Below are positions 8,527-51,944 of a stretch of 64,000 nucleotides of DNA, piece after piece. Both the position numbers and the translations under genes were made by a program. The stretch covers positions 9,595-73,594 of the forward strand of contig JACRNO010000060.1 of the NCBI GenBank assembly GCA_016234855.1, given 5' to 3'. The stretch's first letter is position 1, and each line of letters opens with the position of its first letter. Source of the DNA: Deltaproteobacteria bacterium. Lineage in GTDB: Bacteria; Desulfobacterota; GWC2-55-46. The notes beneath the pieces were generated by a model that saw only the letters and a list, made by a program, of their open reading frames with translations, made no database searches and was not told the origin of the DNA.

Positions 8527-10446
8527 ATGCTTGAGAGCATCAGAAAGAGACAGAAATCCATCGTCATACTGGTCGCCTTCGCGGCCATCATCATCGTCTT
8601 CGTCTTCTGGGGGGTCGGGCCGGACGGCATGAAGAAGACCTCGGAGATGGCCGTGGCCGAAGTAAACGGCGAGACGATAAGCGGCAAGGAATACGCCGCC
8701 ATGTACAAGCGCCAGGTCGAATACTACAAGTCCATATTCAAGGGACAGTACAACGACGAGATGGCAAAGACCCTCCGGCTGAAGGAGAAGTCGCTCGACG
8801 TCCTCGTCAACAAGAGACTCGTGCTCAAGGACGCGGCTGACAGGGGCATGACCGTGACGGAGGCCGAGATGCAGGACTACATAAAGAACGTCGACGCATT
8901 CAAGAAGGACGGGGCCTTCGACCTGGCAACATACAGGCGGGTGCTTGACGCAAACCGGCTCACCCCGGCGGAATTCGAGCAGAACGTGCGGGGCGACATG
9001 CTCTACAACAAGATATACGCCGCGGAGACCAGGGACATAACGGTTACCGGCGCCGATATCAAAGAAGCCTACATGACGGAGAACAGGGAATTCTCCTACG
9101 ATTACGCCACAATCAACCCTGATAAATACGTTGCCAGGGTTCAGGTCACTGACGAGGAGGCAAAGAAGTTCATGCAGGAGAACGTCTCATCCTTCATGGA
9201 GCCGCTCAAACTCAACGCCTTCTACGTGAAGGCCGATATAGGCGCGTTCGAGAAGAAGGTCAAGGTCGACGGGGCCGAGATAAAGGAATATTACGAGAAG
9301 AACATCAAACAGTTCGAGATACCCGAGAGCGTGGCCGCAAGGCACATACTGATAAAGACGGACCCAACGGCCAAAGACCAAGCCAGGGACAAAGAGACAG
9401 CCAGGGCAAAGGCCGAAGAGATACTTAAAAAGGCTCAGGCTGGCGCGCCGTTCACCGAACTCGCAAAGAAGAACTCGGCGGACCTCTCGTCGGCAAGGCA
9501 GGGCGGAGACCTCGGCTGGTTCCAGAGGGGACAGATGGTAAAGCCCTTTGAAGACGCGGCCTTCTCTCTCAAAAAAGGAGAGACGAGCGGGTTAGTCGAG
9601 ACGGCCTTCGGTTTTCACATCATACAGGTCTACGACAAAAAAGAGCCTCAGGCCGCGCCGCTCAAAGAGGTCGAGGGACAGATAAAAAGTCTCCTCGCTA
9701 AAGAAAAGGCGTGGAAGACCGCCAGCGATATGATGGTGGCCCTGATAAAACCCTTAACCGACGCGAAGACGCCGGCCGAGCTCAGGAAGGCGGCAACGGA
9801 GCGCGGACTTAAGGGCATGGAGACGGGCCTTATCACGGAGGCCGACAGGAGCTCCGTGATATCGTCCGACGAAATCCTGCGTGGCAGCGCCTTCTCGCTG
9901 CGCCAGGGCGAGGTCTCAAGACCGCTTCAATCAAACCAGGCGTTCTATCTCATCAAGGCGATCGAGAGGATAGACCCGGCCGCACAGGACTTTGCAAAAG
10001 CGGCGCCGGTCATAAGGAACGCGCTTAAGGCAAGAAAAGCGGATGAACAGGCGTCCAGGGCCGCCGAAGAGCTCCTGAAGAAGGCCGTTGAAAAAAAGGA
10101 CCTTGCCACCGTTGCAAGGGACGCGGGCCTGAAGGTGGAACAGACCGGCCCGTTCAGCATGCAACAGGGCGTTATCAAGAAGCCCGGGTACTTTGTCAAG
10201 GACAAGCCAAAATTCTTCGAGGCCACAAAAGACGCGCCCTTCTACCCGGAAGTTGTGAAGGTCAAGGACGGCTATGCCGTCTTCAAGCTCAGAGACGTCA
10301 AGGATGCGAATATCGCCGGGCTTGAGAAGGTCAAAGCCGAACTTGAAAAGAACCTGCTCGCGAAGAAACAGAACGACGCCCTGGAGAAATGGATAAAAGG
10401 GCTTCGCGAGAAGGCGAAGATACAGATTCACCAAGATAGACTATAG
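8527..10446 (+). CDS. ppiD: Periplasmic chaperone / peptidyl-prolyl cis-trans isomerase PpiD-like (SurA N-domain plus PpiC-type rotamase domain)
   Basis: 639 aa with N-terminal TM helix. The parvulin domain region (ARHILIKTD ... [42 protein letters not shown]) matches the PpiC rotamase signature. GGAGG SD before the ATG. Confidence 0.8.
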
Positions 10447-10545: not shown

Positions 10546-12261
10546 ATGCGCTTCTCCAGAATGCTGCTCCACACGCTCAAGGAATCACCGTCGGACGCCG
10601 ACGTCATAAGCCAAAAACTCATGATGCGCTCCGGCATGATACTCAAGGTCGCCGCCGGAATATACAACCTCCTGCCTCTGGGACTGCGCGTCATATCGAA
10701 GGTCGAGGGCATCGTGCGCGAGGAGATGAACCGCGCGGGCGCCCAGGAAGTCTCCATGCCCGTCGTCATGCCCGCGGAGCTCTGGAAGGAGAGCGGCAGA
10801 TGGGACGTCTACGGCAAGGAGCTCCTGCGGTTCAAGGACCGGCACGACAGGGAGTTCTGCCTCGGGCCGACGCACGAAGAGGTCATAACGGACATAGTGC
10901 GGCGCACGGTCCGCTCGTACCGCGAACTGCCCCTTAACATCTATCAGATACAGACGAAGTTCCGCGACGAGATACGCCCGCGCTTCGGCCTTATGCGCGG
11001 ACGCGAGTTCACCATGAAGGACGCCTACTCCTTCCACGCGACCGACGAATGCGCGGAGCGCGAGTACCGCAACATGTACGACGCATACTGCCGCATATTC
11101 GAGAGGTGCGGCCTGAAGTTCCGCGCCGTGGAGGCCGAGACCGGGGCCATAGGCGGCAGGTTCTCGCACGAGTTCATGGTGCTGGCCGAGACCGGCGAGG
11201 ACGCCATAGCCTCGTGCAACGCCTGCTCCTACGCCGCAAACACCGAGCGCGCCGAGATAAGGCCGCCTGAGACGGCCATTTCAAACGAACCCGCCGGACC
11301 CATCGAGGCCGTAAAGACACCCGGCAAAAAGACGGTCGAGGACGTGAGCGCGCTCTTGAAGGTGGCGCCCTCAAGGCTGATAAAGACCCTCATCTACGAG
11401 ACGGACAAGGGCGTCATAGTTGCGCTCGTGCGGGGCGATTACGAATTGAACGAGATGAAGCTCTGCCGCGCCATTGACGCGGAATGGGTCAAACTCGCCG
11501 ACGAAGAGACGGTACGGAAGACCACGAACGCGCCGTCCGGCTTTGCCGGGCCTGTCGGCCTCAAAGCGGATATATGGGCCGACCACGGCGTAAGAGGGAT
11601 GGTAAACGGCGTCACGGGCGCGAACGCGGCGGATGAGCACCTTATAAACGTGTGCGAGGGCCGTGACTTCGAGGCGCAATTCGCCGACCTTCGCGTGGTT
11701 GTTGCGGGAGACGCCTGCCCGCGCTGCAAAGGCGCTCTCGAAATATTTCGCGGCATAGAGGTCGGCCACATCTTCAAGCTCGGCACAAAGTACTCGTCCG
11801 CCCTGTCCGCTACCTTCCTTGACGAGACTGGAAAGGCCCAACCTTTCATCATGGGCTGCTACGGCATTGGCATAGGCAGAACGGCCGCGGCCGCCATCGA
11901 GCAGAACCACGACGAGGCGGGCATCATCTGGCCTGGCCCCCTGGCCCCGTTCTCGTGCGAGGTCGTGCCGGTAAACGTCGCGGACGAAGGCACGAAGAAG
12001 GCGGCTGAGGCGTTATACCATGCGCTACAAGAGGCCGGGTGCGAGACCCTGCTCGACGACCGCGACGAGCGGCCAGGCGTAAAGTTCAAGGACGCGGACC
12101 TTATCGGCATACCCGTGCGCGTGACCATAGGCGAACGCAACCTGAAACAGGGGCTTGTAGAGATAAAAGAGAGGCGGGCAAAAGAGGCCCGGCTTGTCAA
12201 AGTGGAAGATGCGGCTGCGGCGGTGATGGAGGCTTTGAAGACGAGATTACCAGGGTCGTAG
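10546..12261 (+). CDS. proS: Proline--tRNA ligase
   Basis: Class II aaRS motifs (FRDEIRPRFGLMRGREFTMKDAYSFH). The ORF track opens at 10465, but the first 80 nt are a GTCAGGAG hairpin repeat, so the ATG at 10546 (MRFSRMLLHTLKE) is the likelier start. Confidence 0.9.
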   Translation: MRFSRMLLHTLKESPSDADVISQKLMMRSGMILKVAAGIYNLLPLGLRVISKVEGIVREEMNRAGAQEVSMPVVMPAELWKESGRWDVYGKELLRFKDRHDREFCLGPTHEEVITDIVRRTVRSYRELPLNIYQIQTKFRDEIRPRFGLMRGREFTMKDAYSFHATDECAEREYRNMYDAYCRIFERCGLKFRAVEAETGAIGGRFSHEFMVLAETGEDAIASCNACSYAANTERAEIRPPETAISNEPAGPIEAVKTPGKKTVEDVSALLKVAPSRLIKTLIYETDKGVIVALVRGDYELNEMKLCRAIDAEWVKLADEETVRKTTNAPSGFAGPVGLKADIWADHGVRGMVNGVTGANAADEHLINVCEGRDFEAQFADLRVVVAGDACPRCKGALEIFRGIEVGHIFKLGTKYSSALSATFLDETGKAQPFIMGCYGIGIGRTAAAAIEQNHDEAGIIWPGPLAPFSCEVVPVNVADEGTKKAAEALYHALQEAGCETLLDDRDERPGVKFKDADLIGIPVRVTIGERNLKQGLVEIKERRAKEARLVKVEDAAAAVMEALKTRLPGS

Positions 12262-12283: not shown

Positions 12284-12452
12284 AATTTTGTCCCGCGTTT
12301 ATTGTCATTTCGACCGAAGGGAGAAATCTTAAGATTCCTCACATTTGATAAGTTACAAGACAAGATTCCTCGGTCGCTTGTGCGCTAACGTTATGTCTTT
12401 GGCGCCTTCGCTTCCTCGGAATGACAGCGAAATGTAATTAATCAGAGGTTCC
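12284..12452. mobile_element. MITE-like element copy 2 (one clear TIR, internal GTCATTTCG...CGGAATGACA palindrome)
   Basis: Right TIR TAATTAATCAGAGGTTCC at 12435-12452. Shares the CTTGTGCGCTAACGTTATGTCTTTGGCGCC module with copy 1 and with 13495-13520 and 44391-44430. Confidence 0.5.
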
Positions 12453-20524: not shown

Positions 20525-20587
20525 CTCCTTTCAAGAGAGACCGAGCAAGACCCGTCTCCACGGTATTGGGTCTATTTTAACCCGTAA

Positions 20588-20654
20588 GGACAGTGGTTAG
20601 TGATTAGTATCCACTATCCATTGTCCACTATCCACTAACCACTGTCCACTGTCC
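20588..20654. repeat. Stutter hairpin S2 (CCACTATCC-unit arms)
   Basis: GGACAGTGGTTAGTG...ATCCACTATCCATTGTCCACTATCCACTAACCACTGTCCACTGTCC, with a 15-bp stem GGACAGTGGTTAGTG/CACTAACCACTGTCC. Abuts the pilB stop codon, between pilB and pilT. Confidence 0.6.
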
Positions 20655-22358
20655 CTAATCGGCCATCGTCACCCTCATGATCTCTTCGATGGTGGAGACA
20701 CCCTCAAGCACCTTGGTGATACCGCTCATACGAAGCGTCTTCATCCCGTCTTTGATGGCAATCCTTTTAATCTCCGAGGTAGGGGCGCCGTTCAACACCG
20801 CCTCCTTCAGGGCATCCGTAAAAGGCATGACCTCGTAAAGCGCTATCCTGCCCTTGTACCCGCTTCCGTTGCACGTCGCGCACCCCGCGCCCTTGTAGAC
20901 CTCAACCCCGGCGTCTATAATGTCCTGCGCGACGCCGAAGGTCTTTAACAAGGCCTCGGACGGCTGTGGGGCCTTGACCTTGCAGTCCTTGCATACCTTA
21001 CGGGCGAGCCTCTGGGCCAGGATGAGGTTACATGCGGACGAGACGAGGAACGGTTCTATACCCATGTTAAGCAGCCTGTTAACGGTGCCCGGGGCGTCGT
21101 TCGTATGGAGAGTGGAAAGCACCAAATGACCCGTAAGCGCGGCCTTGACCGCGATCTCGGCCGTCTCATAGTCGCGTATCTCTCCGACCATGATAACGTC
21201 CGGGTCCTGACGCAGGAAGCTCCTCAGCGCCGCCGCGAAGTTCAGGCCGATATCGTCGTGCATCTGACACTGGTTTATGCCGCCGAGATTGAACTCGACT
21301 GGGTCTTCCGCGGTCGAGATATTCTCGCTCACCTTGTTAAGGTCTGAGAGGGCTGAATAAAGCGTCGTCGTCTTGCCGGAGCCGGTCGGGCCGGTGACGA
21401 GGCAGATGCCCCACGGCTTGTGGATGGCGTGCATGAAGTCGTCAAGGGCCTTCTGCTCGAAACCGAGCTTGGTCATGTCGAGCTGCAGGTTGCCCTTGTC
21501 GAGGAGACGCAAGACCGTCTTCTCGCCGAAGAGCGTCGGCAGCACGGAGACGCGGTAGTCCATCTCCTTGTTCTTGGCGAGCTTGAGCTTGATCCTGCCG
21601 TCCTGCGGCAGCCTGCGCTCGGCGATATCGAGATTGGCGATGATCTTTATCCTGGACGTGATGGCGTTTCTGAGCTTCATGGGAGGCTTCATCACCTCCT
21701 GAAGCACGCCGTCAATCCTGTAACGCACGCGGAAGGACTTTTCATAGGGCTCGATATGGATATCGGAGGCGTTCTTCTTGATGGCGTCGGTGAGTATCAT
21801 GTTGACGAGCTTGACGACAGGGGCGTCTTCAACGGCCTTCTTGAGGTCGTTGACGTCGACGTCGTCTTCCTCCCTGACGACCTCCATGTCGGTGTCTTCA
21901 AAATCGCCGAGCATGCCTTCGAGGTTGGCCTCCGGCGATTCATACTGCTTTTCAATGGCGGCCTTTATGGCGGCCTCGGAGGCGATAAGCGGCTCGACGT
22001 TGTAACCGGTAAGGAATTTTATGTCGTCGATTGCGAAGATGTTGGACGGGTCGGCCATGGCCATGACCAACGTGGAGCCGGTCCTGTTAACCGGTATTAT
22101 CTGGTACTTCTGACAGACGTCCTCAGGTATGAGCTTTACGATTTCAGGGTCGATTTCAGCGGCGGCAAGGTCGATGGTGGGTATCCCGTACTGCCTGCTC
22201 AAAAAGGCGGTCAGGTCTTTTTCGGTAATGAATCCGAGCTTGGTGAGATTAAGACCAAGCCGGCCACCGCTCATCTTCTGCTCATCAATAGCCTTTTTCA
22301 ACTGCTCGGCCGTAATAAGCCTCTCTCTAAGTAGTAGTTCGCCGATTCTATCCGCCAT
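20655..22358 (-). CDS. pilB: Type IV pilus assembly ATPase PilB
   Basis: 567 aa. GSPII N-domain, Walker A GPTGSGKTTT, tetracysteine motif (CKDC...CATCNGSG). Confidence 0.9.
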   Translation of the reverse strand: MADRIGELLLRERLITAEQLKKAIDEQKMSGGRLGLNLTKLGFITEKDLTAFLSRQYGIPTIDLAAAEIDPEIVKLIPEDVCQKYQIIPVNRTGSTLVMAMADPSNIFAIDDIKFLTGYNVEPLIASEAAIKAAIEKQYESPEANLEGMLGDFEDTDMEVVREEDDVDVNDLKKAVEDAPVVKLVNMILTDAIKKNASDIHIEPYEKSFRVRYRIDGVLQEVMKPPMKLRNAITSRIKIIANLDIAERRLPQDGRIKLKLAKNKEMDYRVSVLPTLFGEKTVLRLLDKGNLQLDMTKLGFEQKALDDFMHAIHKPWGICLVTGPTGSGKTTTLYSALSDLNKVSENISTAEDPVEFNLGGINQCQMHDDIGLNFAAALRSFLRQDPDVIMVGEIRDYETAEIAVKAALTGHLVLSTLHTNDAPGTVNRLLNMGIEPFLVSSACNLILAQRLARKVCKDCKVKAPQPSEALLKTFGVAQDIIDAGVEVYKGAGCATCNGSGYKGRIALYEVMPFTDALKEAVLNGAPTSEIKRIAIKDGMKTLRMSGITKVLEGVSTIEEIMRVTMAD

Positions 22359-22445: not shown

Positions 22446-22596
22446 TTAAGGAAGCTCTGATTAATTCTGTTATTTGTCATTCCGAGGAGCGCTGTTGCGA
22501 CGAGGAATCTTGTAACTTGCTGAATTGCCTGCGAAACAAGATTTCTCGCTACGCTCGAAATGACAATTTGGTTGAATTAATCAGAGTTTCCTTAAT
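22446..22596. mobile_element. MITE-like element copy 4 (upstream of pilB)
   Basis: TIRs TTAAGGAAGCTCTGATTAATTC (22446-22467) and GAATTAATCAGAGTTTCCTTAA (22575-22596). Internal GTCATTCCGAGGAGCG...CGCTCGAAATGACA palindrome. Confidence 0.65.
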
Positions 22597-28515: not shown

Positions 28516-28545
28516 ACCCGCCGCCTGCTGCGCGCTTTCTCTGTG

Positions 28546-28692
28546 CCGTCAGGAGTTTCCTCCTGACGGCGGTACCCGGCGGATGGCAGGAGGAAACTCC
28601 CGCCATCACACTAATTTTCAGTCCCGTCAGGAGTTTCCTCCTGACGGCGGTGCCCGGCATATGGCAGGAGGAAACTCCCGCCATCACATTAA
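28546..28692. repeat. Two 69-bp direct repeats (78-bp period), each a double hairpin of the GTCAGGAG family (H2)
   Basis: CCGTCAGGAGTTTCCTCCTGACGGCGGT(A/G)CCCGGC(GG/AT)ATGGCAGGAGGAAACTCCCGCCATCACA(C/T)TAA at 28546-28614 and 28624-28692. About 94% identical. Confidence 0.7.
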
Positions 28693-37860: not shown

Positions 37861-38020
37861 CCATCGCCTCCTTGACAGTTAATTGCCCGCCCTATAAAAA
37901 AGCATGGGCGGCGGGATTCATGCTCCCCCTCATTTCAAAAAGAGAGGGCAAAACGCATCCCCTCTTTCAAGAGGGGAGGTTGATACTCCCCCCATTGAAA
38001 AAGGGGGGCCGGGGGGGATT

Positions 38021-39247
38021 TTAATTAATGTTTATCCTGTGCCTTAAAACCCTTATCGCGAGTATGGCCTCCGCGCCGTCAACGACCGCATCGGGGCGGA
38101 AGTCGCCGGAAAGCTCGGTCTCCATGATGCTGCGCGTCGTCACGCTCATGACGGCGTTATACCATGCGGCGGAAGGCGCGACGTCCGGGAACGGAGACTT
38201 GTCCTGCCCGAAATAGGCGCTGGCAAGCTTCTCGTCGCCCGTGAGCTTTATAAGGACGTCTTCGAGCACCATGGCGAACTGCTTGCGCGTGACCGGCTCA
38301 TCCGGCCTGAACAGATACGCCCGCGTGGTCTCGTCATATACAGGCTCAAGCCCGCGCACGCCCCACTTCATCAGGGTCAGTATCTCGCCCTTGAACGGGC
38401 TTGCCATCACGTCGGCAGGCGTAAAATCGGCCTTCATCTTTGCCAGGTTCGATTCGGACGGGATGCGCCCGGCGAAGAGCTTGTCGACCTTGAGCTCGTC
38501 GACCAGGAGTGCCGCCATGTCGGCGCGCGTCACTGACTCCTGCGTCGCTATGGTCTTACCCACGTCGCCGACGGTGATGCCGGCCATTGCCCTTACTATC
38601 TTGTCGGTCTTGTTCCAGTACTTCTCGGCAAGCGGCGCCCACCTGCTCGAGACCTTCTCGTTTATGACGTCAGCGAACCTGTCCCTTGCGGACTGGAAGA
38701 CCTTGCCCTCAAGATAGGCTCTGCCCATGTAATACATCGCCGCTTCCCTGCCGTCGTAGTAGAGGAGCTTTCTATCGTCCACCTTGAGCTTCATCGCCGC
38801 CTTGTAGTGGTCTTCGGCGTCGTTGAGCCACTTGCCGGGCTTAAGAAGCATGTCGCTGCGTATGGCCGCGACGTGATACGCAAACGCGTCCTCGTCGGTA
38901 TTTGCATTCTTCTCCGACGTCTTGAGCGACTCGGCAGCCTTGTCAGCGTCGACCTTCATATAAGCCGCGTCCTTCTGCGCCTTATACTTGGCAACGGCCT
39001 TCTCCGAGTTCACGATACCGAGGCCCGAATAGGCCGGGCCGAAGCCCTGTTCGCAGGTAATCGCCCTCTGGAACTTGCCTTCAGCCTCGTCTACATTGCC
39101 CTGCTCGACCAGCTCCATGCCCTTGAGATAATGATGCTGCGGGTTATCCTCCGGGGTAATACATTCGGACACGTGCTTGGCGCAGCCGGCCGATATCAGA
39201 AAAAGCAGCGCCAGGCCTATCAACGGGAACCTACCAATCTTAGTCAC
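38021..39247 (-). CDS. Lipoprotein with TPR-like N-terminal region and two SLH-like C-terminal repeats
   Basis: GTG start at 39247 after a GGAGG SD gives MTKIGRFPLIGLALLFLISAGC (lipobox). C-terminal FPDVAPSAAWYNAVMSV...VTRKQFAMVL and ESVTRADMAALLVDEL resemble S-layer-homology repeats. The SLH assignment is tentative. Confidence 0.5.
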   Translation of the reverse strand: MTKIGRFPLIGLALLFLISAGCAKHVSECITPEDNPQHHYLKGMELVEQGNVDEAEGKFQRAITCEQGFGPAYSGLGIVNSEKAVAKYKAQKDAAYMKVDADKAAESLKTSEKNANTDEDAFAYHVAAIRSDMLLKPGKWLNDAEDHYKAAMKLKVDDRKLLYYDGREAAMYYMGRAYLEGKVFQSARDRFADVINEKVSSRWAPLAEKYWNKTDKIVRAMAGITVGDVGKTIATQESVTRADMAALLVDELKVDKLFAGRIPSESNLAKMKADFTPADVMASPFKGEILTLMKWGVRGLEPVYDETTRAYLFRPDEPVTRKQFAMVLEDVLIKLTGDEKLASAYFGQDKSPFPDVAPSAAWYNAVMSVTTRSIMETELSGDFRPDAVVDGAEAILAIRVLRHRININ

Positions 39248-39282
39248 GTTTGCAACCTCCTTTATTTGATTACAACCTGAGA

Positions 39283-39370
39283 CTTGTATGTGGGATGTAG
39301 TATGTGGGATGTGGCAAAGTCTTCTATGCTTTCCGCCTTCCACTTCCCACATCCTACATCCCACCTCCCT
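39283..39370. repeat. Stutter hairpin S3 (TGTGGGATGT-unit arms)
   Basis: TGTGGGATGTAGTATGTGGGATGTGG...CCACTTCCCACATCCTACATCCCACC, about 26-bp imperfect arms. Intercistronic between the CsgG-like gene and the SLH-like lipoprotein gene. Confidence 0.6.
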
Positions 39371-39384
39371 TTTTTGCCTGAAAA

Positions 39385-40350
39385 CTACCGCGACTGCCGT
39401 ATCACGTCCCCTGCCTGAAAACCGCTCCCCGCGCGCACGGACGCCTCGGATATCTTCTCGTTCTGATGCGCCGTAAGCGTTATCTCGCCTATCTTCTTCT
39501 CGCGCTTGCCTATGACCCTTCCGGTATCCGGGTCAACGAGGTCCTGACCGGGACGGAGCACGTCGAATACCGAACCTTCCGGCAGACGGGACCTCATGCC
39601 GGCCTTGATTATTATGACGGAGCCGTCAACGGCAAGCACCCTGCCCTGGAACGGCTGCTGGTTGAGTTTTTCCACCATCCTCGTCATGGCCTTGGTAAGC
39701 GCATCGCGCAGCGCGCCCTCGCGAAGTCCCACGTCGGCCGTGGACTTTGAACCGAGACCCAGCACGCCCCCTGTCTTTTTCCTGTATTCGCCCATACCGG
39801 ATTCGGCGACGAGGCTCCTGCCGGTGGCCACGTCAACAAGGGCGTAGTCCACCTGTACGCGCGCAATCTGGGTCTTGCTCTGAGCGACCAGCACGTTGGA
39901 GCCTTCCTCAAGCTCGGAGTATGATGTGATGGAGCCTGATATCCTGTAATCCACCGACTCCATGCCCTCGGCCGCGTTCTTCAGCCCGGTCTTTACTGCC
40001 CCGGTCTGCTGCAGGGCTATCATCTTCTCCTGTGCGCGCATATCGTCGTCCGTAAGGCTTATCGGCTCGAGGCCGGACTTCTTCACGATGGTGCGCAGGA
40101 TATCGGTCGCGGCCTCGCCTATGCCAAGCACCCTGCCGGGCGTCTTGTTGGCGAACGTAAGTATCGCCACGTTATACTGCGGCCCGTTGTACTGCGCGCC
40201 CGCCTCTTCAAGTTTTCCGGTCTGACCGGTGACGCTGACGTCCTCCTTTACCGCTCCGGTTATGGTGGGCGAGCATGAGGCCGTTGAGATGAGCATTGCC
40301 GAGAGCACGGCCAGGAGGCCAAGATTCATCGATAACTTTCTTTTAGCCAT
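39385..40350 (-). CDS. CsgG-family outer-membrane lipoprotein (curli-secretion-channel-like)
   Basis: Lipobox LISTASCS. Motifs YNVAILTFANKT, ATDILRTIVKKSGLEPIS, VDYRISGSITSY and QVDYALVDVATGRSL parallel E. coli CsgG (KIFVSVYNIQDETG, LVTALKDS, ANIMVEGSIIGYE, NLRVVNVSTGEIL). Confidence 0.7.
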   Translation of the reverse strand: MAKRKLSMNLGLLAVLSAMLISTASCSPTITGAVKEDVSVTGQTGKLEEAGAQYNGPQYNVAILTFANKTPGRVLGIGEAATDILRTIVKKSGLEPISLTDDDMRAQEKMIALQQTGAVKTGLKNAAEGMESVDYRISGSITSYSELEEGSNVLVAQSKTQIARVQVDYALVDVATGRSLVAESGMGEYRKKTGGVLGLGSKSTADVGLREGALRDALTKAMTRMVEKLNQQPFQGRVLAVDGSVIIIKAGMRSRLPEGSVFDVLRPGQDLVDPDTGRVIGKREKKIGEITLTAHQNEKISEASVRAGSGFQAGDVIRQSR

Positions 40351-40509
40351 ATTTTCACCCCTTTAAATAATAACCCGGTTTTAACGGCCCGGACGGTCAG
40401 TGCCACCGTTTTAACGTAGCGCAGGCCTTCAGGCCTGCATCTGTAAAGTGAGAACAGCCCACCAAAACTACCAGTGAACCGAAATGATGGACAGCGCTAC
40501 CCTGCTTGA

Positions 40510-41310: not shown

Positions 41311-41459
41311 TTAAGGAACCTCTGATTAATTCATTTCTTTTCTGTCATTCTGAGGAGCGAAGCGACGAAGAATCTCGTAACTTGTTGAATTTCTTAGAAG
41401 CGAGATTCTTCGCTTCGCTCAGAATGACACCATTGTGGAATTAATCAGAGGTTCCTTAA
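41311..41459. mobile_element. MITE-like element copy 6 (compact 149-bp archetype)
   Basis: Perfect TIRs TTAAGGAACCTCTGATTAATTC (41311-41332) and GAATTAATCAGAGGTTCCTTAA (41438-41459). Internal palindrome GTCATTCTGAGGAGCGAAGCGACGAAGAATCTCGTAACTTG...CGAGATTCTTCGCTTCGCTCAGAATGACA. Confidence 0.7.
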
Positions 41460-44123: not shown

Positions 44124-44185
44124 GTGGCGTCAGGAGTTTTCTCCTGACGCCTTGCCGTGCGCCGTCGGGAGGAAACTCCCGACGG
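44124..44185. repeat. GTCAGGAG-family hairpins (H3, two adjacent)
   Basis: GTGGCGTCAGGAGTTTTCTCCTGACGCC and CCGTCGGGAGGAAACTCCCGACGG, at the 5' end of the amidohydrolase gene. Confidence 0.6.
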
Positions 44186-46391: not shown

Positions 46392-46457
46392 AAGTTATCG
46401 GTTATCAGTTATCAGTAAATGTGTTTCCGTTTTACCGATAACCGATAACGGATAACC
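46392..46457. repeat. Stutter hairpin S4 (GTTATC-unit arms)
   Basis: AAGTTATCGGTTATCAGTTATCAG...CCGATAACCGATAACGGATAACC. Intercistronic between pycA and pycB. Confidence 0.6.
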
Positions 46458-46460
46458 AAT

Positions 46461-47879
46461 TCAGAACCCGTGGTGGGCGGCTATCGCGGCAGCCAGGGCC
46501 GCGACGACGTCCGTAGGCTCGCCGTATTCGTCATAGTCCATAAGTTCCGGCTTTCTGTCGATGTATCCCGTGTCAAAATTGCCCGCCTTGAAGTCCGGGT
46601 CTTTCATTATGTTCTTCAGGTAGAGTATCGTGGACTTCACCCCGCGTATGACGAACTCGTCGAGACACCTGTGCGTCCTCGCGACCACCTCTTCCCAGCT
46701 TGAGCCTCTTACGATGAGCTTGACCACGAGAGAATCGTAATGCGACGGCACGACGAAGTCCTTGTATATCGCCCCGTCTATGCGTACGCCAATGCCGCCT
46801 GGCGAATAATACGCCGTGACCTTGCCGAAGGACGGGAAAAAATTATTCTTCGGGTCTTCCGCGCAGATGCGGCATTCGATGGCGTAGCCGTTTATTCTGA
46901 CGTCCTCCTGCTTGAAGCCAAGGGGCTTGCCCGCGGCTATCTCTATCTGCTTTTTAACGAGGTCTATGCCGGTCGTCTCCTCGGTTATCCCGTGCTCGAC
47001 CTGTATCCTCGTGTTCATCTCAAGGAAGTAATAGTTCATCCCGGCGTCCACGAGAAACTCGACCGTGCCGGCGTTCGTGTAGTTTGCGGCGGCCGCCGCC
47101 TTTACCGCGTCCGCGCCCATGCGGCTGCGCAGGTCCTCATTGAGTATGAGCGAAGGCGTGATCTCGATGAGCTTCTGGTGGCGCCTCTGTATCGAGCAGT
47201 CGCGCTCGCCCAGATGGACTATATTGCCGTAATTGTCGGCGAGTATCTGGAACTCGACATGGTGCGGCCTTTCGATGTACTTCTCCAGAAAGACCGCCGA
47301 GGCGCCGAAGGCCGCGGCAGACTCGGTTTGCGCGCTGTTGAAGGATTTTATAAGCTCCGCCTCAGAGCGCGCCACGCGAAGCCCCCTGCCCCCGCCCCCG
47401 CCCGAGGCCTTTATCATCACGGGATATCCCATCTCCCTCGCAAAGGCCACGGCCTCGTCAACGTCCTTTACGGAACCCTCGGTGCCGGGCAGTATCGGCA
47501 CGCCGGCCTGCTTCATCATGCGGCGTGCGTTGACCTTATCGCCCATGTCCGAGATGGTCTTGGACGTGGGCCCGATAAAGGTTATGCCCTTTTTATCGCA
47601 CAACAGCGGAAAGCGCGGGTTCTCGGAGAGAAACCCGTAGCCCGGATGGATTGCCTCCACGCCTATCTTCTTCGCAAGGTCGACTATGCGATGGATATTG
47701 AGATAGCCCTGGATAGGCCCGGGCCCCACCATATAAGACTCGTCGGCCTTCTTCACATACAGCGAAGTCGCATCTTCCTCGGAATATATGGCGACGGTCG
47801 GGATATCAAGCTCCTTGCATGCCCTGATTACCCGCGTGGCTATCTCGCCCCTGTTTGCTATCAAGACCTTTTTAAACAT
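46461..47879 (-). CDS. pycA: Pyruvate carboxylase subunit A (biotin carboxylase)
   Basis: [26 protein letters not shown]... shows the ATP-grasp biotin carboxylase fold. Start taken at the ATG at 47879. Confidence 0.85.
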   Translation of the reverse strand: MFKKVLIANRGEIATRVIRACKELDIPTVAIYSEEDATSLYVKKADESYMVGPGPIQGYLNIHRIVDLAKKIGVEAIHPGYGFLSENPRFPLLCDKKGITFIGPTSKTISDMGDKVNARRMMKQAGVPILPGTEGSVKDVDEAVAFAREMGYPVMIKASGGGGGRGLRVARSEAELIKSFNSAQTESAAAFGASAVFLEKYIERPHHVEFQILADNYGNIVHLGERDCSIQRRHQKLIEITPSLILNEDLRSRMGADAVKAAAAANYTNAGTVEFLVDAGMNYYFLEMNTRIQVEHGITEETTGIDLVKKQIEIAAGKPLGFKQEDVRINGYAIECRICAEDPKNNFFPSFGKVTAYYSPGGIGVRIDGAIYKDFVVPSHYDSLVVKLIVRGSSWEEVVARTHRCLDEFVIRGVKSTILYLKNIMKDPDFKAGNFDTGYIDRKPELMDYDEYGEPTDVVAALAAAIAAHHGF

Positions 47880-48106
47880 ACCTGTATCCGGCCGTTGCCC
47901 CTGAAAAAGAGAGAACGGCATTTATTACCGCGTCCTTCGGACGCAGTTGTATCAGACAAAATATTAAGCCAAGATTACGTTAAAAAGTCAAGGAAAATGC
48001 GCTCCAAAACCGGCATTTGAAGGCCAAAAGATGAGACGCATGTGTAAATAACGGCTTGAGCCGGGATACACGGCTGAAAGGGCGCATAAGGGGAGTTAGA
48101 ACCGCC

Positions 48107-49655: not shown

Positions 49656-51944
49656 TCAGATCAGTTCCACCTCAAGCATACCGTCAGCCATGGGTATGGT
49701 ATGAACGGTCTCGGATATCATCCTGACCTTCTTGGCGGTCTCGCGGTAATCGGGGTCTACTGCGCTGACTGCCGCATAGAGTTTACCCGCCTCTTCAAAC
49801 TTTTCATCGGCCTCGTATGCAAGCGCAAGCTCGTACATCATACCCTTGCGCTCTTCGTCGCTCCTGCCGGTCACGCGCAAGCCCTTGGTGTAATACCCTA
49901 TCGCGTCTTCGTATTTACCCTCGGACATGGAGCACAGGGCCAGACGCGTATAACAATCGAACTCCAGGAGCGGGTCTTTGAGCGCAATCTTGAACTCCTT
50001 GACGGCCTCGCCGAGAAGCTCCATCTCCATATACGCTATGCCAAGATTGAAATGCGTCTCCGAGTCCTCCTTGTTGAGCTGATTGCCTATGCCGGTCTTG
50101 AACTCGTCGAATGCCTCCTTGGAACTACCCGCCCCCCATGAGCCCGCAAGGTCCGAGAGGGCGTCTTCCATGCCAAGCTCCTTGGAGAGATCGACGAACT
50201 CGTCGCCGGAGCCGGTCTGCCCGGCCTCGGCAACGCTTGCCGCTTCCGGCACGGCCCTGGTCTCGACGACCTCATCCGGCAGTTCCTCGACCATCTCAAG
50301 AGGTTCATGATGCTCAGTCATCTCGCTGATGGACTTCGTAAGGTCGTCATGCGTAAAGCCGGCCTGGGCAGGCGCTGCGGCTTCGTCCGTCTCAACATGT
50401 TCGGTGATAATCTCCTCTTCAATCTCCAGGGAAGTCTCTTCAACCGGGGCCGCTTCAATTGCCTCTTCAGGCGCGGCCTCTGGAACGTCCGCTATCTCGG
50501 GCTCCGTCTCGAAGACAATCTCTTCGGCAACCTCTTCTTCGTGCGCCGCTTCCGGCGCCACCTCGAAGACAATCTCTTCGGCAACCTCTTCTTCGTGCGC
50601 CGCTTCCGGCGCCACCTCGAAGACAATCTCTTCGGCGGCCTCTTCTTCAGGCGCGGAAGGCGTCACGGCCTCGGGCGCGCCCTTGGCTGATGCGCCAGCC
50701 GATACGTCCGCGGCGACGGCGCTGAGTATCGCGTCGACCTCGCGCTGGGCCGCGGCGCCAGGCATCTCAAACTCGACCTCCGTGGCCTTTACCCCGGAGA
50801 TATCCAATTCAAGGGCCCGCCCGCCGCCTTCTTCAACTGTCCCAGGCCCCTCTTCAACCTCAACCTCAAATAGAGGCTCGTGCGGCGCCTCCTCCTTACT
50901 CTTATCACCGCCAAGGTCAACGCTAAGCCCTGTCTCCGGAAATGAAATCATGGGCTCTTCTTCCGGCCTAAGGAGCGCGGGCGGCTCCGGAGTCTTTGAC
51001 GGCTCCCCGACCTCCGGGAAACTAATAAGCGGCATGCCTTGTTCCGGCACGGGCGGTTCGCTCAACTCGGGGAAACTGATAAGCGGCGCGGCATCCAACG
51101 GCTGTCTGGCCGGACCTTTCGCAACCGCTCCGGCCTTGTCCTTTGCCGGCTCCGGCCCCTTGCCAAGGTACTTAAGACAGTCCTCGTCCTTCGGAGAGAC
51201 CTCAAGAATGGCGTCGCAAACAGCCCTGGCGTTCTCGGCGTCGCGCCTCTCCACATAGACATTGAAAGCAGCCTTGGTGAATTTTAAAAACTTCTCGTCG
51301 TCGTGGCGCTTTTTATAAAGCTCGGACAGGCCCTTCAGTATGCGGATATCCTTGGGGTAGGTCTTGTAGAGGGTCGTAAACGTCTTCTCGGCCTTGTCGA
51401 GCTTGTCCTGCGCCATGTACTTCTTGAAGATGACGGCGTACTCGCCAAGGGCGTCGTTCTCAAAATTCAGCTTCTGATATAGCTCGGCGAGCTTCAGGCG
51501 GATGCCGATATTATCAGGGTCGATATCGAGCATCTCCTTGAGGAGCTGCATGACCTCGCCGGTCTTGCCCTTCTTCTCGAAACTGGAGACGAGCAGCGAG
51601 TACTCGCCTATTGCGTCGGATATCAGGCGCTGTTTGGCGTAGAGCTCCGCGAGCTTGTAGTGTATCTCGTAGTTGGTCTCCTCAAGCTTGAGCACCTGCT
51701 TGTAGACGGCGATGGCCTTGAGGTAGAAACCGCGCTGACTGTTGGCCTTGGCGACTTCCTTGTACTCCTCGATGGCCTCGGTCTTCTTGCCCATCTTGAC
51801 GTAGAGGTCGCCGACGCGGAGCCGGATGGAGATATCCTTAGGGTCGGAGTCGAACGCGGCCTTGTACTCAAGGATGGCCTTGTCCAGTGCGCCCTTTGCA
51901 AGGTGCGCCTGGGCGCGCTCCATTAATTTATCTTTAAGGGCCAT
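49656..51944 (-). CDS. TPR-repeat protein with central acidic Pro/Glu-rich region containing 19-aa tandem repeats
   Basis: N- and C-terminal TPR blocks. The centre has VAEEIVFEVAPEAAHEEE repeated about 2.5 times and a long low-complexity acidic tract. No TM or signal peptide. ATG at 51944 preferred over the GTG at 51974. Confidence 0.7.
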   Translation of the reverse strand: MALKDKLMERAQAHLAKGALDKAILEYKAAFDSDPKDISIRLRVGDLYVKMGKKTEAIEEYKEVAKANSQRGFYLKAIAVYKQVLKLEETNYEIHYKLAELYAKQRLISDAIGEYSLLVSSFEKKGKTGEVMQLLKEMLDIDPDNIGIRLKLAELYQKLNFENDALGEYAVIFKKYMAQDKLDKAEKTFTTLYKTYPKDIRILKGLSELYKKRHDDEKFLKFTKAAFNVYVERRDAENARAVCDAILEVSPKDEDCLKYLGKGPEPAKDKAGAVAKGPARQPLDAAPLISFPELSEPPVPEQGMPLISFPEVGEPSKTPEPPALLRPEEEPMISFPETGLSVDLGGDKSKEEAPHEPLFEVEVEEGPGTVEEGGGRALELDISGVKATEVEFEMPGAAAQREVDAILSAVAADVSAGASAKGAPEAVTPSAPEEEAAEEIVFEVAPEAAHEEEVAEEIVFEVAPEAAHEEEVAEEIVFETEPEIADVPEAAPEEAIEAAPVEETSLEIEEEIITEHVETDEAAAPAQAGFTHDDLTKSISEMTEHHEPLEMVEELPDEVVETRAVPEAASVAEAGQTGSGDEFVDLSKELGMEDALSDLAGSWGAGSSKEAFDEFKTGIGNQLNKEDSETHFNLGIAYMEMELLGEAVKEFKIALKDPLLEFDCYTRLALCSMSEGKYEDAIGYYTKGLRVTGRSDEERKGMMYELALAYEADEKFEEAGKLYAAVSAVDPDYRETAKKVRMISETVHTIPMADGMLEVELI
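50508..50655. repeat. 57-bp tandem repeat (about 2.6 units) inside the TPR/acidic protein gene
   Basis: TCGAAGACAATCTCTTCGGCAACCTCTTCTTCGTGCGCCGCTTCCGGCGCCACC repeated at 50508, 50565 and (partial) 50622. Encodes the 19-aa VAEEIVFEVAPEAAHEEE repeats. Confidence 0.8.

Follow-up and report, generated by a model that had tools for sequence, protein, structure and literature searches.

In a 64-kb stretch of an uncultured groundwater 'Deltaproteobacteria' metagenome-assembled genome (MAG), hereafter the window, we observed at positions 39283-39370 a hairpin whose arms are two facing tandem arrays of a 7-nt unit that reads GGGATGT on one strand and ACATCCC on the other. Two minus-strand genes, one CsgG-like and the other coding for a TPR/SLH lipoprotein, enclose the 137-nt spacer in which this hairpin lies. 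According to our analysis, the element is probably an inverted pair of simple-sequence repeats and belongs to a class of heptamer-armed hairpins located in spacers between same-strand genes of this MAG and its relatives, with a presumed effect on the mRNA that contains it.

An inverted-repeat search placed the two arms at 39290-39314 and 39340-39364. Each is 25 nt long, they lie 25 nt apart, and 23 of the 25 positions (92%) are complementary, which bears out the inverted repeat at 39283-39370 described in an earlier interpretation made from the letters alone (the sequence-only reading). The plus strand from 39283 to 39375 reads cttGTATGTGGGATGTAGTATGTGGGATGTGGcaaagtcttctatgctttccgccttCCACTTCCCACATCCTACATCCCACCTCCCtttttt. 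That interpretation had also held the arms to be built of tandem units, and Tandem Repeats Finder supports this with a period of 7 for both, ATGTGGG repeated 3.9 times in the left arm (39288-39314) and CCACATC repeated 4.3 times in the right arm (39340-39369); the unit is therefore the heptamer GGGATGT, not the 10- or 12-mer assumed before. The arrays are 33 and 34 nt long, corresponding to 4.7 and 4.9 heptamer units. The left arm (39286-39316) is G-rich on the plus strand, where its ~4.7 units read GTATGTG, GGATGTA, GTATGTG and GGATGTG followed by a single G, and two copies of a 13-nt direct repeat, GTATGTGGGATGT, are found at a spacing of 14 nt within 39286-39312. The right arm (39340-39369) is G-rich on the minus strand, with ~4.9 units reading GGGAGGT, GGGATGT, AGGATGT and GGGAAGT followed by GG. 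A variant unit, GTAGTAT / GTAGGAT (GTAG(T/G)AT; G-to-A), occupies the mirrored position of both arms, and a 21-mer made of three GGGATGT units matches either arm with two mismatches. When at most one mismatch was allowed, TGTGGGATGT was found seven times in the window versus 1.98 expected, and five of these seven matches fall within the hairpin element. The 25-nt loop between the core arms (39315-39339), caaagtcttctatgctttccgcctt, is devoid of repeat structure.

On the sense mRNA, read from the minus strand, the right arm is the 5' arm and opens with GGGAGGU, which resembles a ribosome-binding site, and the left arm is the 3' arm with its ACAUCCC-type units. Folding of positions 39250-39384 (135 nt, nearly the whole spacer) yielded -47.8 kcal/mol for the sense strand (z = -6.63) and -41.7 kcal/mol for the plus strand (z = -5.53), and none of 200 shuffled sequences folded as well in either orientation. 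As single-stranded DNA, the 93-nt core (39280-39372) folds at -25.5 kcal/mol (z = -8.7). The hairpin structure is real and well beyond chance, and the RNA folding that the sequence-only reading had put forward as a check came out in favor of the hairpin. The minus-strand arm contains three G3 tracts and the plus-strand arm two, and four consecutive tracts occur in neither. A canonical three-tetrad G-quadruplex is thus unavailable and the hairpin should be the dominant structure, making G-quadruplex formation unlikely at this site.

The hairpin is flanked by an imperfect direct repeat (12 of 14 positions; shuffle p ~0.03), one copy of which lies in the ribosome-binding-site region (39255-39268) and the other at 39363-39376. 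This repeat hints at a duplication or insertion event. The second copy contains the T6 run at 39370-39375, which is located on the plus strand 5 nt beyond the end of the core stem and reads A6 on the sense mRNA. We also noted that the copy located upstream on the mRNA, CAAAAAAGGGAGGU, is a duplicate of the true ribosome-binding-site region, CAAAUAAAGGAGGU, and that an AUG-UAG minimal start-stop is found 4 nt past it.

Three sibling hairpins with heptamer arms were found in the window, all between minus-strand genes. The first, composed of GTTATCN / NGATAAC units, lies at 2255-2345 between two open reading frames (ORFs). Another is made of AGTGGAT / ATCCACT-type units (20585-20660) and overlaps the stop codon of the gene at 20655-22358, and the last, with RGTTATC / GATAACY units (46393-46457), starts 3 nt past the stop codon at the end of the gene at 46461-47921. 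Hence, two of the three are situated at a distance of 0-3 nt from the upstream stop codon; no T-run accompanies these siblings on either strand. In a related genome (locus L004), the spacer orthologous to 46393-46457 is 24 nt long and lacks the hairpin. Three unit families were found again at non-orthologous spacers of relatives: the GTTATCN family in L004 at 9946 (9946-9985), 11017 (11017-11100) and 12405 (12405-12425), the AGTGGAT family at position 5597 of L001, and a G-rich GGGAGGC form, resembling the GGGATGT hairpin, at position 6541 of L004. Across ~120 kb comprising the window and loci L001, L004 and L005, an inverted partner accompanied 7 of 12 tracts of period 7 versus only 3 of 74 tracts of periods 4-6 and 8-12. 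As a separate observation, two unpaired arrays of the GTTATCN type in L004 run right up to the CAAGGAG ribosome-binding site of the gene that follows.

An exact look-up of the CsgG-like protein of the window gave no entry; using its homologues, we reached the orthologous loci of related genomes and compared their spacers. The closest relative, L001, and L127 encode CsgG proteins 85% identical to that of the window and keep the edges of the spacer (stop followed by GTTTT, and AAAxAAAGGAGGT..CAAACGTG), but the core of ~85 nt is unrelated and contains small palindromes only; the replacement boundaries between L001 and the window are sharp. L004 (81% identity) carries a hairpin with different heptamer arms, in which GGTTATC x4.5 faces GATAACC x3.9. 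A plain GC hairpin follows the stop codon in L005 (75%), and merely ~10 nt separate stop from start, with no hairpin, in L128 and L133/L134 (67-70%). In L135-L139 (61-63%), the spacer contains a hairpin with hexamer-repeat arms, (GGTTGA)n, located at 8096-8166 in L135, 10932-10998 in L138 and 2814-2887 in L139. Conservation of the (GGTTGA)n hairpin extends over three species and includes two to three compensatory changes. This lineage also bears further hexamer- and octamer-armed hairpins (L135, 11229-11288 and 14085-14158), one of them followed by a T-run.

These comparisons indicate that the GGGATGT hairpin itself is not conserved: it is specific to its lineage and came to occupy the spacer recently, by gain or by replacement. 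Lack of conservation in related genomes was what the sequence-only reading had named beforehand as counting against its proposal, and L001 and L127 do lack the hairpin. As close relatives live without it, the element must be dispensable. Moreover, orthologous spacers differed in content at every junction examined, showing that spacer turnover is fast. At the same time, the CsgG-like | TPR/SLH junction is repeatedly occupied by repeat-armed hairpins. Copy number was constant between identical assemblies: L126 differs from the window by 0 mismatches in 2879 nt, and L001 is identical to L002 and L003, although these assemblies possibly derive from the same populations.

We then scanned 185,579 species genomes (596 Gb) with GTGGGATGTNGNATGTGGGA, a pattern that itself requires ~3 units. 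It matched at least 120 loci (L006-L125), versus ~17 expected by chance according to our own arithmetic. The matches listed belong to Bacteroidota, Planctomycetota/Phycisphaerae, Gemmatimonadota, Lentisphaerota and Chloroflexota, as well as Thermaceae, Streptomyces, several Proteobacteria, and the archaeal Methanoregulaceae and Methanosarcinales; several of these genomes contain multiple (GGGATGT)n loci. Array length among the matches listed ranges from 4 to 39 units, 5 units being the commonest, and the longest array, with 39 units, is found in a Zymobacter chromosome (L123, 5963-6238). Among the low-GC loci listed, 21% lie in a stop-free frame compared to 58% of random positions, a depletion which indicates that (GGGATGT)n arrays are mostly non-coding. 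An inverted partner was detected for ~10% of the arrays listed, and several of the paired arrays are from Gemmatimonadota with a T-run following. A search of a paper library for the (GGGATGT)n string retrieved nothing relevant, only unrelated papers on eukaryotes.

The genes on either side of the hairpin match the flanks that had been described from the sequence, and the comparison with databases gave a 100% match to a groundwater MAG labelled 'Deltaproteobacteria bacterium'. The upstream gene (39385-40350, minus strand) codes for a 321-aa lipoprotein of the CsgG/HfaB family (PF03783), and its stop codon (39385-39387) lies 15 nt ahead of the heptamer array. The downstream gene (38021-39247, minus strand) codes for the TPR/SLH-domain lipoprotein; its GTG start at 39247, set by comparison with orthologues, is preceded on the minus strand by AAGGAGG at 39256-39262. 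The T6 run on the plus strand was likewise confirmed, as was the minus-strand orientation of the genes. Both genes belong to a cluster ordered FlgT_N-like, GNA1162-like, CsgG-like, TPR/SLH and two further envelope proteins, and this order is syntenic in relatives. We rejected a coding role for the hairpin, whereby a frame opening at GTG 39364 would run in frame into the lipoprotein gene, because translation of the orthologues begins at the conserved GTG that follows AAGGAGG and yields a standard lipoprotein signal peptide; the signal peptide of the TPR/SLH protein, MTKIGRFPLIGLALLFLISAGC, is kept in orthologues.

The sequence-only reading had also considered attenuation. An intrinsic (Rho-independent) terminator is defined by a short G+C-rich stem, a loop of 3-8 nt and a U-tract located 0-2 nt from the stem on the transcribed strand. 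The terminator scan called no site at the heptamer hairpin on either strand. Past the stem, the sense strand reads CAUACAAGUCUCAGG and has no U-tract, and therefore the hairpin is not an efficient intrinsic terminator, so that attenuation or termination on the sense strand finds no support. On the plus strand, the loop has 25 nt and five unpaired nucleotides (CUCCC) separate the stem from U6. The anatomy of stem, loop and U-tract together with the scan led us to reject an intrinsic terminator in either orientation. Yet the genome does use ordinary terminators, since canonical hairpin-plus-U sites are present 1.3 kb downstream, after the TPR/SLH gene. There, three consecutive hairpin-plus-T-run sites follow each other on the minus strand at 37885-38020, and one of them (37977-37958) was called by the terminator scan. 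Transcription of the unit probably ends or attenuates at 37885-38020, not at the heptamer hairpin.

With Rfam 15, the whole window produced no match at the gathering threshold, and an E-value search of the spacer returned only sub-threshold matches to microRNA precursors (at most 26.5 bits compared to gathering scores of 48-168), which is what any long hairpin would give. Core sites of integron attC elements have the consensus RYYYAAC / GTTRRRY. An attC site was rejected, as the arms do not fit these cores and gene order is conserved across genomes. A miniature inverted-repeat transposable element (MITE), for which terminal inverted repeats, target-site duplications around them and several near-identical copies would be expected, was also rejected, given that the element is single-copy in the window and that the flanking-repeat test was inconsistent across 11 elements: two gave p ~0.03-0.04, one gave 0.056 and eight were not significant. 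The element at 11017 in L004 is flanked by an 8-bp repeat. As flanking repeats do not generally accompany hairpins of this class, transposition is not supported. Repetitive extragenic palindromes (REP) and bacterial interspersed mosaic elements (BIME) are many-copy families; only one GGGATGT element is present in 64 kb.

How could such an element arise and act? Slippage would expand the 7-nt unit, with either inverted duplication or intrastrand template switching keeping the arms mirrored. Replication slippage, already suggested by the sequence-only reading, is a reasonable origin because the arms are short tandem arrays, and it agrees with the published view of heptanucleotide repeats. In the mRNA of the operon, a stem-loop of 25-27 bp, with a folding energy between about -43 and -48 kcal/mol, would begin 15 nt past the csgG-like stop and leave ~25 nt up to the next ribosome-binding site. 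A duplex of 25-27 bp would be a plausible substrate of RNase III and a block to 3'-to-5' exonucleases, and being long enough for both, it could uncouple the stability of mRNA segments; a REP-like uncoupling of the upstream and downstream portions would be its most likely effect. An effect of the hairpin on mRNA processing or stability is plausible. Several observations weigh against the paired-repeat interpretation as a whole. Independent assemblies of the same species displayed no copy-number variation, hence ongoing slippage was not observed. The 64-kb window contains a single GGGATGT-type copy. Loss of the hairpin in the closest relative fits a neutral, functionless element equally well. 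Finally, in a comparison of the two strands that looked for strand selection through G.U pairs, the sense strand folds more strongly in three of four window elements but more weakly in four of five L135-L139 elements tested, and this inconsistency between lineages means that selection at the RNA level is not demonstrated.

A serious competitor is a neutral origin, in which slippage and palindrome homogenisation in a permissive spacer would have produced the hairpin and any mRNA effect would be incidental. We regard this explanation as possible, though less likely than the paired-repeat interpretation. It is consistent with the absence of the element from the closest relative, with spacer content that turns over at every operon junction, with the ~10 nt that separate the two genes in some relatives, where nothing is evidently needed, with the lack of a consistent sense/antisense stability signal and with published studies that found no function for comparable repeats. 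However, a neutral process does not readily account for the recurrence of a few unit sequences, instead of arbitrary heptamers, across genomes at non-orthologous sites, nor for pairing specific to period 7. Moreover, a repeat-armed hairpin of some kind occupies the same junction in three lineages, and complementarity of the arms is preserved, variant units being mirrored and a few changes compensatory. The sequence-only reading had favored a dedicated, conserved cis-regulatory RNA of the operon, either an attenuator or a processing site, that would partition expression. Although a stable stem-loop between two cistrons and the presence of some hairpin at the junction in several lineages are compatible with such a device, we consider it improbable. 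The orthologous spacer of the nearest relative shares neither sequence nor structure with the window, hairpins of other units or periods replace it elsewhere or are missing where the spacer is ~10 nt, Rfam gave no match, the sense strand has no U-tract, and the identical architecture recurs in other, unrelated spacers of the window.

Explanations that place the function outside the sense mRNA appear weaker still. A mobile element (MITE- or REP-like), or a site acting at the DNA level through a heptamer-binding protein, a cruciform or a G-quadruplex, would explain the sharp replacement boundaries relative to L001, the 12/14 flanking direct repeat (p ~0.03), the 8-bp flanking repeat at L004 11017 and the sharing of unit families by different genomes. 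Binding of IHF/HU or a global regulator has been proposed for similar paired sites (PMC2700814), and GGGAATC repeats form G-quadruplexes (PMC4692102). Nonetheless, 8 of the 11 elements tested have no flanking direct repeat or an insignificant one, unit number varies and loops are unrelated, leaving no fixed element sequence, and the 64 kb hold one copy of the GGGATGT unit type. Neither arm has four G3 tracts, and a 7-bp period does not match the helical repeat of DNA; we thus judge this explanation very unlikely. Most improbable in our opinion is an antisense terminator on the plus strand, formed by the hairpin and T6, that would end an RNA initiated within 39105-39150 and overlapping both the ribosome-binding site and the beginning of the TPR/SLH gene. 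T6 (39370-39375) does follow the C-rich arm on the plus strand, two plus-strand promoter-like sites are present (39105-39132 and 39123-39150), and T-runs come after some of the (GGGATGT)n hairpins of Gemmatimonadota. Conversely, the five unpaired nucleotides (CUCCC) between stem and U6 and the 25-nt loop are unfavorable, the terminator scan made no call, and the promoter-like sites are weak, matching at 9 of 12 positions (6 sites vs 2.8 expected). The A/T run also looks like part of the duplicated ribosome-binding-site segment, and the sibling hairpins lack a T-run on either strand.

The paired-repeat interpretation, with its presumed effect on mRNA, can be extended to a bolder proposal, namely that hairpins with tandem-repeat arms constitute a selected, self-renewing module of operon junctions. 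We find this doubtful. It is suggested by the CsgG-like | TPR/SLH junction, where three lineages each display a unit or period of their own (the heptamers GGGATGT and GGTTATC, the hexamer GGTTGA), and by the handful of units that recurs across genomes and even phyla, such as TAACNGA, or GGGATGT at no fewer than 120 loci. If true, it would imply either an RNA structure tunable by slippage that sets expression ratios, or a sequence-specific factor, whether RNA-binding, DNA-binding or mobilising, that recognises particular heptamers.

On its own, the GGGATGT hairpin is a repeat hairpin restricted to one lineage, and its consequence is uncertain. It is of value as a clean example of under-studied inverted heptamer-repeat pairs, so far described in Xanthomonas and Geobacter without explanation. 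The window shows that the class extends to uncultured groundwater Deltaproteobacteria, employs a small set of recurring units, turns over quickly at orthologous spacers and repeatedly occupies one operon junction. Should these hairpins modulate mRNA processing or stability, they would offer an evolvable means to tune expression ratios within operons. Otherwise, they would represent a mutational signature of slippage and palindrome homogenisation, not to be annotated as terminators or small RNAs.

Other repeats were observed in the window. A MITE-like element of ~150 bp with 22-bp terminal inverted repeats, TTAAGGAACCTCTGATTAATTC, is present in two copies (22446-22595 and 41311-41459); the second copy, which contains an internal palindrome, GTCATTCTGAGCGAAGCGAAGAATCTCG..., occupies the spacer that separates the FlgT_N-like and GNA1162-like genes of the same operon. 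A palindrome family of the CCGTCAGGAGTTTCCTCCTGACGG type was found at 28542-28692 and 44128-44185, the stretch 28546-28692 comprising 1.9 copies of a 78-nt unit, and the related hairpins CCGTCGGGAGTTTCCTCCCGACGG and GCGTCAGGAGAAAACTCCTGACGC, which have a REP-like look, are located just upstream of an M20 peptidase gene. Small AGGCCT-based palindromes (GCAGGCCTGAAGGCCTGC; AGGCCTTAAGGCCT) are found in different spacers of the same operon, at 40421-40438 of the window and 7686-7699 of L001, and may be another family of short dispersed palindromes. Lastly, a 54-nt tandem repeat at 50508-50648 (2.6 copies, 97% identity) is probably coding, given its period, a multiple of three.

Among known systems, REP and BIME are fixed sequences of 20-40 nt, present in hundreds of copies and linked to RAYT transposases (REP-associated tyrosine transposases), and intercistronic stem-loops, for example the E. 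coli malE-malF REP, stabilise the upstream mRNA. The element described here resembles REP and BIME in being an extragenic palindrome between cotranscribed genes that has no U-tract and would block 3' exonucleases; unlike them, its arms are tandem heptamers of variable number.

Closer counterparts are the tandem heptamers themselves, which according to Mrazek 2007, as summarised in PMC4679880 and PMC4692102, arise by slippage. MacGregor 2015 (PMC4679880) described TAACTGA direct repeats in marine Beggiatoaceae, cyanobacteria and Bacteroidetes. These form intergenic arrays of 2-6 units just upstream of start codons, with one favored unit per genome, and hardly ever occur in inverted pairs, for which a single case was seen in 170 sets. 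GTTATCN / NGATAAC is TAACNGA in rotated, complementary form, and the siblings in the window and in L004 use the TAACTGA-type unit rotated (GATAACY / TAACNGA), whereas the element at 39283-39370 uses a different one. The TAACNGA-type repeat thus extends to groundwater Deltaproteobacteria MAGs, where it is mostly paired.

Rehm 2015 (PMC4692102) reported G-rich repeats of 7 nt, with the unit GGGAATC in Xanthomonas and GGGGAYT in Nostoc, which favor ~4 units and non-coding positions between co-oriented ORFs near stop codons. Each Xanthomonas genome contains 70-75 convergent pairs with stem-loop potential, for which no function was found, and G-quadruplex formation was shown for the GGGAATC repeats. 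In Nostoc, a preprint tested the deletion of heptamer repeats and could only speculate on their role. The GGGATGT hairpin shares with these repeats a heptamer made of a G3 tract and four other bases, ~4-5 units per array, a non-coding position between co-oriented ORFs close to the upstream stop (here 15 nt), two opposite-strand arrays that face each other and can form a stem-loop, and a sequence and length that vary between related genomes. It differs in its GGGATGT unit, in its uncultured groundwater 'Deltaproteobacteria' MAG host, in the absence of an arm with four G3 tracts and in the coexistence, in the same genome, of families that are not G-rich (GTTATCN, AGTGGAT). Turnover at orthologous sites also looks higher than in Xanthomonas, where 83% retention was reported between two species (PMC4692102).

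In Geobacter metallireducens, Aklujkar 2009 (PMC2700814) described pairs of sites on opposite strands, each consisting of 3-5 tandem repeats of 7-9 nt; one such pair lies between proB and proA, and binding of IHF/HU or a global regulator was guessed. Like classes 1-3 of these sites, the hairpins described here are opposite-strand pairs at a variable distance, located in intergenic regions including within an operon, and like them they are species-specific and absent from sister species. The consensus units of G. metallireducens (GTTGCTYN, TCTCCGTS[Y] and MTYCTGA) differ from GGGATGT, and hence the likeness is one of kind and not of sequence family. Judging from its repeat organization, the GGGATGT hairpin is structurally the same kind of object as the convergent pairs of Xanthomonas and the paired sites of G. 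metallireducens.

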